Assembly: GCF_048403405.1 (NCBI RefSeq)
Contig: NZ_CP183129.1
DNA from: Escherichia coli
GTDB lineage: Bacteria > Pseudomonadota > Gammaproteobacteria > Enterobacterales > Enterobacteriaceae
DNA: 64,000 bases
Direction: 5' to 3' (one strand)
Shown: piece by piece, positions 59,098 through 60,519 of the stretch
Numbering within the stretch: position 1 is the first letter of the stretch
Layout of the letters: every line of letters starts with the position of its first letter
The notes under the pieces: model-generated
Seen by the model: only the letters and a program-made list of their open reading frames with translations
What the model was told of the DNA's origin: nothing
Database searches by the model: none
Program-made: the position numbers and the translations under genes

Positions 59098-59412
59098 TTA
59101 TTCTGGGAATAAGGTCTGAATATTCTTTTTTATTCTATAAAAATTGCATTCAACTCCGCTAGGCTGATTATCCTGGTATGTTTCCTTGATGCTAACGGTA
59201 TTGAAGGGGAGGTTGTCCTCTGGCCATTCGGCCATCCAGTAGGCAAATGCTGGGTTGCGCTTTATGAGCGCTAGCCCAGCCAGAAAGGCCGCGCGTTGCG
59301 CGCGGCTGCGTTCGGAGGCTGGTAGGCTATCGAGGTAATTGCACGCCTCCTGTTCACTCTTGACGGCGGCGGGCTTCAGATAGAAACTTATCCGTCTGGT
59401 TGGTGTCGTCAT
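59098..59412 (-). CDS. parR: ParR-like centromere-binding partition protein
   Basis: ATG at 59412 with AAGGAG 8 nt upstream gives 104 aa containing LDSLPASERSRAQRAAFLAGLAL, resembling R1 ParR (LDSIPQGERSRLNRAALTAGLAL) from memory. Confidence 0.7.
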   Translation of the reverse strand: MTTPTRRISFYLKPAAVKSEQEACNYLDSLPASERSRAQRAAFLAGLALIKRNPAFAYWMAEWPEDNLPFNTVSIKETYQDNQPSGVECNFYRIKKNIQTLFPE

Positions 59413-59416
59413 TGGT

Positions 59417-60376
59417 TTACTCCTTGTCCATTGCGTACAGCCCATTAACCAGAGCAAACTGTGGCACCCCGTCCGCGATGAAAGTCGCATTAACTCCGCA
59501 GACTTCGCGGATAGCGGGTGCCACAATCTCCGCCCCTCCACCGACAACCATCACCCGCCCGTAACCCGAAAAAACCGCCAGCGCGCGGATCACGCGTTGT
59601 TTCAGTGTTTCTTCCTTTTCACGAATAACCGCCATCAGGCTGGCGTAATGCGCGTCATTGTGGATGTGCTGGCGCAGCCAGGCTTCATCATGGCGATGTT
59701 CGATAATGGTATTGGCGATGTGGTGACTGGTGCGCATACCGTTAGTGGCCATCACCGACAGTACGGCATCGGCCATCAGGGAAACGCCTACGTGTGGATC
59801 GCAAAACACCTGGCTGATACCTGCCAGTTGCCCTTGAACCTTTGCCACATCCAGCGTGGTTCCGCCTAAATCCACAATCAGCAGGGATTCAAACGGACTC
59901 ATGTCAGCCAGTGCTTTAAAGCCAGCCGGAATGGATTCAGGCATAACCCGCACGTTACGGATAGTGAATGCTTCGCCGTTCTGGTACTCCACCGAGCGCA
60001 TAACGTTCGCTTTTTTGCGGTTGATGTTGGCCATGTCCGGCTGTGCGTTTGTCTCGAAATACTCGCTCAGTGGCAGGGTGACAACCACATCCACCTCTTG
60101 TGGCGTGATGCCTGATTTGACCAGCGCGTGATGAATGGCGATTACATTCACATCGCTGTACTGGTATTGCGTGTCGGTCGTCTGGACAAAGCGATCGCTG
60201 ACCGGATCAAAACCATAGCGCACGCCATCAAGCATGTAGTTCGCGGGCTGCATGCCACCGAACGGCGCAGACCATTCCGACTTGAAGCTGTTCGGGCTGA
60301 TGGCGTTGCGGCGTTCGCCATTCTCAGTCCATGCCAGCTTGATGTTGGTGGAGCCGTCGTCGATACAAATTTTCAT
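59417..60376 (-). CDS. parM: ParM/StbA-family actin-like partition ATPase
   Basis: 319-aa product beginning MKICIDDGSTNIKLAW with IVDLGGTTLDV and VVGGGAE motifs, close to R1 ParM as I recall it. Confidence 0.8.
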   Translation of the reverse strand: MKICIDDGSTNIKLAWTENGERRNAISPNSFKSEWSAPFGGMQPANYMLDGVRYGFDPVSDRFVQTTDTQYQYSDVNVIAIHHALVKSGITPQEVDVVVTLPLSEYFETNAQPDMANINRKKANVMRSVEYQNGEAFTIRNVRVMPESIPAGFKALADMSPFESLLIVDLGGTTLDVAKVQGQLAGISQVFCDPHVGVSLMADAVLSVMATNGMRTSHHIANTIIEHRHDEAWLRQHIHNDAHYASLMAVIREKEETLKQRVIRALAVFSGYGRVMVVGGGAEIVAPAIREVCGVNATFIADGVPQFALVNGLYAMDKE

Positions 60377-60406
60377 GTCGATTTTCCTTATGTTGGTTAA
60401 TTAACC

Positions 60407-60519
60407 GTTTACGGGATTTTTAAATCCCGCTTTCGCCTGTTTTGTGCGCGCTTCATATATCGCGGCGCGTTTTTTGCTCATTTACGGGATTTGTGAATCC
60501 CGTTTCTGTCTGTTTTTTG
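60407..60519. repeat. Two ~40-bp direct repeats with internal dyad symmetry upstream of parM (candidate parC or ori iterons)
   Basis: GTTTACGGGATTTTTAAATCCCGCTTTCGCCTGTTTTGTG (60407-60446) and TTTACGGGATTTGTGAATCCCGTTTCTGTCTGTTTTTTG (60481-60519); the second lies within the last codons of gene A. Confidence 0.65.

Follow-up and report, generated by a model that had tools for sequence, protein, structure and literature searches.

A predicted type II (ParMRC-type) partition module in P88-like prophages of Escherichia coli, a lineage of integrating P2-like phages

Background

Partition systems are usually taken as the mark of plasmids and plasmid prophages. In the type II system of plasmid R1, the centromere parC consists of ten iterons, an arrangement of short TATCTC-like direct repeats, and the adaptor ParR binds DNA with its N-terminus and the actin-like ATPase ParM with a C-terminal peptide. 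Here we describe a locus related to this system, a parM-parR gene pair (parMR) preceded by two palindromic repeats, in a P2-like prophage of Escherichia coli; it lies at positions 59098 to 60519 of a 64,000-nucleotide stretch of contig NZ_CP183129.1 (assembly GCF_048403405.1), this whole stretch being referred to below as the window. Judged by sequence relationships and gene order, the module is a core component in one clade of P2-like phages that integrate, and we consider it probable, with some reserve, that it is a working type II (ParMRC-type) segregation module acting on the free circular phage genome.

Actin-like systems have been described on two other kinds of integrated element. The srpMRC locus of the SXT/R391 integrative and conjugative elements (ICEs) is co-expressed with the integrase, and it keeps the element stable once this has been excised (Carraro et al. 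2015, PMC4489591). In the AlpAC system of the Corynebacterium glutamicum prophage CGP3, the circular DNA of the phage is coupled to actin-like filaments, and its efficient replication depends on the system, the genes of which are induced early (Donovan et al. 2015, PMC4446434).

The parM and parR genes

All relevant genes between positions 59,000 and 63,400 of the window are on the minus strand, and the module and the gene in front of it comprise the following features:

60453..63320, minus strand: gene A, replication endonuclease of P2 type (phrog_91 "nicking at origin of replication", 7e-277; "replication endonuclease" in RefSeq)
60481..60519, minus strand: distal 39-nt repeat, second candidate ParR site, within the last ~22 codons of gene A
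60408..60446, minus strand: proximal 39-nt repeat, candidate ParR site (parC-like or operator), in the spacer between A and parM
59417..60376, minus strand: parM, actin-like segregation ATPase (Pfam, PDB match, conserved motifs)
59098..59412, minus strand: parR, predicted small DNA-binding adaptor (Pfam Plasmid_stab_B, profile match to pB171 ParR)

The 319-aa product of parM matches the Pfam families StbA_N (2e-81) and ParM C-terminal domain (1.6e-68), its residues 2-316 match the crystal structure of R1 ParM (1mwk, E 3e-92), and it is 46.5% identical to R1 ParM in a multiple alignment. Every phosphate-binding or catalytic residue that we checked is kept (D6, D7, G8, S9, T10, K13, E148, D170 and the GGTT motif), and the gene encodes, on these matches, an actin-fold ATPase with intact nucleotide-binding and hydrolysis motifs. 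An initial annotation, made from the DNA letters of the window, had proposed a ParM ATPase at this place, and the alignment with R1 ParM over the full length, together with the two Pfam domains, bears this out. Scores against NCBIfam equivalog models were far under the cut-offs and uninformative, the Pfam and PDB matches being decisive. A reading of the pair as a defence system was rejected, as PADLOC gave a match for neither protein.

The start codon of parR is the ATG at 59412, 4 nt past the parM stop, and its product has 104 aa; the open reading frame (ORF) listed for the window at 59098-59547 is an over-extension of this gene, and RefSeq calls the same 104-aa ParR product in an identical E. 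coli locus. The protein matches Plasmid_stab_B (9.4e-29), and a profile built from 9 ParR family members matches pB171 ParR (2jd3) over nearly its whole length (E 2.8e-14). The two matches support the ParR gene of the initial annotation and place a predicted ribbon-helix-helix adaptor directly downstream of parM. In the AlphaFold2 model of the monomer (pLDDT 64), three helices come after an extended N-terminus, and a disordered linker then leads to a terminal helix at residues 91-101.

Conservation of both genes was studied in 80 related viral contigs of IMG/VR. Residues 1-63, which include an invariant RRISFYLKP strand, are common to the ParR alleles and the C-terminal tail NIxxLFPE is conserved, while the linker (residues 64-95) is hypervariable and mosaic. 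More distant phage ParRs likewise have the conserved N-terminal part and an N-x-x-x-x-F tail, and the tail motif N-[IA]-x-x-x-F-P is held across the phage ParRs despite the hypervariable linker. This pattern is what would be expected of an adaptor with a DNA-binding N-terminus and a ParM-binding C-terminal peptide. The linker (window 59125-59223) falls into several unrelated allele classes among the IMG/VR loci L005-L084, the last ~9 residues of ParR being conserved. Synonymous divergence (pS) is 0.30 in parR, far above the 0.07 of the adjacent parM, a contrast that suggests recombination breakpoints inside parR.

Intact parM genes were found in all 80 contigs, with a dN/dS of 0.06, and parR is complete in 77, two of the remaining three genes running off the contig end. 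These figures indicate that parMR is under selection, which for parM is strong and purifying.

Relatives of the module in other genera

Using a protein search, we found ParM homologues at 53-62% identity in P2-like prophages of four further genera, as follows:

Hafnia P2-like prophage (L085): parM/parR downstream of gene A
Plesiomonas P2-like prophage (L087): parM/parR downstream of gene A
Serratia P2-like prophage (L088): parM/parR downstream of gene A
Enterobacter P2-like prophage (L090): parM/parR downstream of gene A

In two of these genera parMR comes directly after A and in the others one or two small ORFs lie between, and in all four it is found upstream of variable cargo and the portal gene; the order A-parM-parR is kept in the P2-like prophages of five genera. 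Outside these phages, ParM homologues of ~48-50% identity are encoded by a Dickeya ICE and by a chromosomally integrated Mangrovibacter plasmid, so that type II partition loci are present in other integrated elements also. Neighbour joining groups the phage-borne ParMs into a single clade of 16 tips, with R1 ParM and the homologues from the ICE and the plasmid outside it; this topology, from a tree without branch support, suggests a single ancient capture of parM by P2-like phages.

The palindromic repeats upstream of parM

The initial annotation had reported two repeats of about 40 bp with internal palindromes before parMR, one of them inside the 3' end of gene A, and both statements proved correct. 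A repeat search returned two direct repeats of 39 nt on the minus strand, 82% identical and 73 bp apart from start to start, the distal one lying within the last codons of gene A (stop codon 60453-60455). Each contains a perfect palindrome with 8-bp arms, CGGG-N10-CCCG: the proximal one, CGGGATTTTTAAATCCCG, is at 60412-60429, ~53 nt upstream of the parM ATG, and the distal one, CGGGATTTGTGAATCCCG, at 60485-60502. The pattern CGGGATTNNNNAATCCCG occurs in the 64-kb window at these two places only, with zero mismatches, when ~0.29 matches would be expected by chance even with 2 mismatches allowed, and a search for further ParR-type sites in the rest of the prophage gave no other close match.

In the E. 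coli population, compared over 78 related loci, the palindrome arms are near-invariant and the centres variable. A YGGG-N10-CCCR pair with a spacing of 72-73 bp is present in the E. coli, Hafnia and Plesiomonas phages, in which the proximal palindrome lies 53-60 nt before the parM ATG, and this geometry is kept although the Plesiomonas A is unrelated to the E. coli A beyond the origin-like motif described below and although another ORF precedes parM in Hafnia. Because the geometry is kept with parM despite unrelated upstream ORFs, the pair belongs to the par cassette, the palindromes following parM and not gene A. The Hafnia ORF that separates A from parM was compared with the extended C-terminus of A from E. 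coli, and no homology was found. The Serratia and Enterobacter phages have a 14-20-bp inverted repeat in place of the palindrome pair, and the Dickeya ICE (L091) and the Mangrovibacter integrated plasmid (L092) have clusters of short TATCTC-like direct repeats in the 300 nt upstream of parM. The phage cis site would thus be a reduced, palindromic variant of the type II centromere/operator. The proposal that the locus has the architecture of a type II plasmid segregation system stands for the ParM and ParR homologues, the operon-like pair and the upstream palindromes, but not for the cis site as a whole, which has no R1-like iteron array.

One IMG/VR locus (L022) has a single palindrome: upstream of its parM (at 6001) the repeats have recombined to a deletion of 73 bp, which joins gene A directly to the proximal repeat. 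As parM and parR are intact there, the locus is a natural test of whether one site is sufficient. A TTAAT(T/C)AA box is found 20-30 nt upstream of the parM ATG (60385-60405 in the window, 7975-7990 in L085 and 6440-6455 in L087); it is kept in the E. coli, Hafnia and Plesiomonas phages and is a poor fit to a sigma-70 -10 element.

Identity and distribution of the prophage

The locus is 100% identical to a region of the E. coli CRE1540 chromosome, where the prophage is located beside pdxB and carries a repressor-like gene besides those for a tyrosine integrase and a Cox protein, and 96-98.5% identical to P88, P884B11, phiSM and other Xuanwuvirus (Peduoviridae) records. The surrounding genes are of P2 type (gpA, portal, terminase, gpO, capsid, cox and integrase), and the prophage is P88-like, belonging to the genus Xuanwuvirus of the Peduoviridae and hence to the P2-like phages. 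Xuanwuvirus records already annotate a "plasmid segregation protein ParM" and a "partition protein", and RefSeq names both genes. In P2 the corresponding slot is occupied by orf91, tin and old, without par genes, in agreement with the earlier remark that P2 itself has no partition system. A survey of P2-like genomes for parMR, which had been suggested as a check, was made on 50,697 deposited phage records: 382 encode a gpA-type initiator, and a ParM homologue was found only in 14 records of Xuanwuvirus type and in two copies of the plasmid prophage D6.

We found the locus in 1303 of 5426 complete E. coli genomes (~24%), where it occupies 1441 places in chromosomes against 2 on plasmids; as a rule it is not stably carried on a plasmid. 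PLSDB holds a single record, pZ1323PEC0009-2 (L001, NZ_CP148288.1), that is a complete P88-type genome with integrase, circular and 34,461 bp long. It was deposited as a plasmid of the cat E. coli isolate Z1323PEC0009, and a human isolate of the same series (H78, NZ_CP148378.1) has a chromosomal copy that is 99.9% identical over the 3.5-kb region compared. Free phage circles do occur, as this 34.4-kb circular record attests, stable episomal carriage being a separate matter. In O157:H7-type strains (L003, E. coli 7784, and many O157:H7 genomes) the prophage is a remnant with an IS3 scar abutting parR; the head genes and the cargo genes between are missing, and gene A, parM and parR are annotated as intact.

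Position next to the replication gene

The product of gene A is 30% identical to P2 A, and the spacer between A and parM measures 76 nt. In P2, the replication origin is annotated at 29892, with the nick site 427 nt ahead of the stop codon of A; the DNA around this site, GCGGC..CCTCGGAGTCCTGTCAATAACTGT, has a clear counterpart inside gene A of the window:

61221..61262, minus strand: origin-like DNA element, homologue of the annotated P2 nick site (nick equivalent near 61237)

The motif, GCGGCC..CCTTGGAC..TGGCAATAACTGTCC, is conserved in P2 (L089 4870-4912), in the window and in the Plesiomonas (L087) and Serratia (L088) phages. It is kept at the nucleotide level while the A proteins are only 30-56% identical, and the C-terminal tails of A downstream of it are unrelated. 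The distance from this element to the repeats is 720-790 bp. The initial annotation had placed one repeat where P2 has its origin, and such a coincidence was rejected, the homologue of the nick site being that far away and the palindromes travelling with parM.

A simple consensus scan for sigma-70-like promoters gave none between A and parM or beside the repeats, and a scan for terminator-like sites gave none between A and parM on that strand; both are weak negatives. A strong Pe-like promoter is present upstream of cox. Since parM and parR directly follow A and share its strand, and neither a promoter nor a terminator is recognisable in the gap, we read them as distal genes of the early (replication) operon: they are probably transcribed last in it, where P2 has orf91, and together with gene A. 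The operon may be closed by a hairpin:

59025..59049, strand not assigned: 9-bp GC-rich hairpin where parR and the cargo genes converge (-18.7 kcal/mol, z -1.8)

This hairpin is the probable end of the operon, although its U-tract is weak. No significant Rfam match to a structured RNA was found in the region.

Possible functions of the module

Under the reading that we prefer, segregation of free phage circles, ParR dimers would bind the two CGGG-N10-CCCG palindromes straddling the end of gene A, growing ParM-ATP filaments would be caught by the conserved tail at the ParR C-terminus, and growth of the filaments would push sister circular phage genomes apart. P2-type replication yields monomeric circles. 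On the reading of parMR as the distal part of the early replication operon, the module would act on the free circle; it would be active only while this operon is on, that is after infection and before integration, after excision and during replication, and no long-term plasmid prophage would be maintained by it. The likely benefit would be dispersal of the phage circles, with both daughter cells inheriting them, or more efficient replication. The precedents of srpMRC (PMC4489591) and AlpAC (PMC4446434) make such a role plausible. A more specific proposal, that P88-type phages use ParMRC with a minimal two-palindrome centromere on free circles and might thereby pass through a transient plasmid-like carrier state, entered by infection or excision and left by integration or lysis, is one that we put forward tentatively and with more doubt than confidence.

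Several observations weigh against segregation. A phage that replicates to many copies may need no partition. There are two ParR-type sites only, when the ICE and plasmid relatives have multiple short direct repeats, and 1 of the 78 related loci (L022) lacks one of the repeats; among the 80 viral contigs, one encodes a truncated ParR of 79 aa. The absence of a separate promoter rests on a simple consensus scan, and transcription of parMR is deduced from weak scans. Foldseek gave no significant fold match with the AlphaFold2 monomer of ParR (pLDDT 64), a null result that says little because the fold forms only as a dimer; as this check was uninformative, we relied on the profile match to 2jd3.

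The filaments might serve replication or packaging in place of inheritance, ParM positioning the replicating circles or transporting them, for example to the membrane or the poles, in the manner of AlpAC, so that inheritance would be irrelevant. The system of CGP3 behaves in this way in an integrated prophage (PMC4446434), parMR of the P88-type phages comes immediately after the replication gene A and less than 0.8 kb from the origin-like element, and a minimal two-site platform is nearer to the binding of AlpA in its own promoter region than to a large plasmid centromere. However, the phage ParM is of the close R1 type (46.5%), the known activity of which is the bipolar pushing of paired plasmids; positioning and segregation are not exclusive and computation cannot separate them, and we rate a role in positioning alone as rather unlikely. 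Maintenance of a low-copy episome through cell divisions, which would make the element a phage-plasmid, is in our opinion improbable; the initial annotation had suggested that the phage can persist as, or descends from, a plasmid-prophage. ParMRC is typical of low-copy plasmids, the circular PLSDB record pZ1323PEC0009-2 comprises a complete P88-type genome, and a sibling strain has the compared 3.5-kb stretch in its chromosome, but a circular contig can also come from spontaneous induction. Integrase and cox are intact, the prophage is integrated beside pdxB, and the chromosomal places outnumber the plasmid places by 1441 to 2 with one circular record in all, so the suggestion of a plasmid-prophage was not upheld. 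The gpA rolling-circle initiator was the only replication function identified, although no dedicated search for a plasmid-type, copy-controlled replicon was made.

We give equally little credence to the possibility that the locus has no function in partition, whether as cargo or a relic, as a ParR/parC unit that is mainly a regulator, or as a means of interference with resident ParMRC plasmids by incompatibility or exclusion. Such possibilities arise because the locus borders a variable hotspot that holds tin and old in P2, because ParR-type proteins are also autorepressors, and because no functional study of parMR turned up when we searched the literature for ParM of P2-like phages, P88 and Xuanwuvirus. 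A relic or passing cargo is difficult to reconcile with parM being intact in 80/80 contigs at a dN/dS of 0.06 and with a position beside A that stays constant in five genera against changing cargo downstream, and a pure regulator needs no intact ATPase. As for interference, the palindromes differ from the plasmid iterons in the relatives, and cross-talk with plasmid ParR proteins is therefore unlikely.

If the module segregates free phage circles in this way, a tailed phage would join the ICEs as an integrating element in need of active segregation while excised. Active partition would then belong to the life cycle of a tailed phage that integrates, and no more than two ParR sites would be needed for ParM-driven movement. 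The locus would then provide a natural minimal centromere with which to ask how few ParR sites can drive ParM filaments, and the module may affect lysogenisation efficiency, prophage stability and the dynamics of spontaneous induction in clinically important E. coli.

Genes neighbouring the module

Between the cos/portal region and parR, the window has a low-GC (0.28-0.39) island of two genes on the plus strand (57400-59100), in the slot of P2 tin and old:

57635-58132, plus strand: DUF4760 gene (phrog_2284)
58172-59014, plus strand: multi-pass membrane protein (phrog_12528; weak PADLOC match to Csx27, 1.6e-5)

The same slot holds a KAP NTPase in the Enterobacter phage (L090) and HicAB in the Serratia phage (L088), and it looks like a variable hotspot for defence or toxin-antitoxin genes.

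Comparison with known partition systems

The genes of the module had already been annotated and its parts are not new, and type II partition modules on integrating elements are a known kind; the variant features are the two-palindrome site and the phage carrier. It resembles ParMRC (parA/stb) of R1/R100 and par1 of pB171 in the full-length homology of ParM with its ATPase motifs kept, in a ParR of the Plasmid_stab_B family, in the order parM then parR and in cis repeats upstream of parM. By contrast, the carrier is an integrating rolling-circle phage and not a plasmid, and its cis site has two palindromes at a distance of 73 bp, the distal of which falls within the end of gene A, where these plasmids have ~ten direct iterons flanking a promoter; the phage module is without a recognisable promoter of its own, and its ParR (104 aa) is shorter.

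Like srpMRC, the phage locus is a type II actin-type module on a normally integrated element. srpMRC is co-expressed with mobility functions, acts on the transient excised circle and has a small centromere of four 13-bp repeats (PMC4489591). Whereas SrpM is distant from R1 ParM and SrpR has no recognisable ParR domain, the phage proteins are a clear pair of R1/pB171 type; the carriers are an ICE and a phage, respectively, and srpMRC is backed by experiment while the phage locus is known from its sequence. With AlpAC/alpS of CGP3 the module shares an integrated prophage as carrier, an actin-like filament protein and an adaptor, which in CGP3 is co-transcribed and binds sites upstream of the operon, as is predicted for ParR. 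The host phylum and the type of phage are different, the adaptor gene comes first in CGP3, and the module of the P88-type phages is a close R1-type ParMR, so that the likeness to AlpAC, taken from the published description, is functional and architectural. The only other ParM homologue among the phage records surveyed, the StbA-type ParM of the P1-like plasmid prophage D6, is 47% identical to that of the window; D6 is a 91-kb plasmid prophage, in which a partition system is expected, whereas the P88-type phage integrates.

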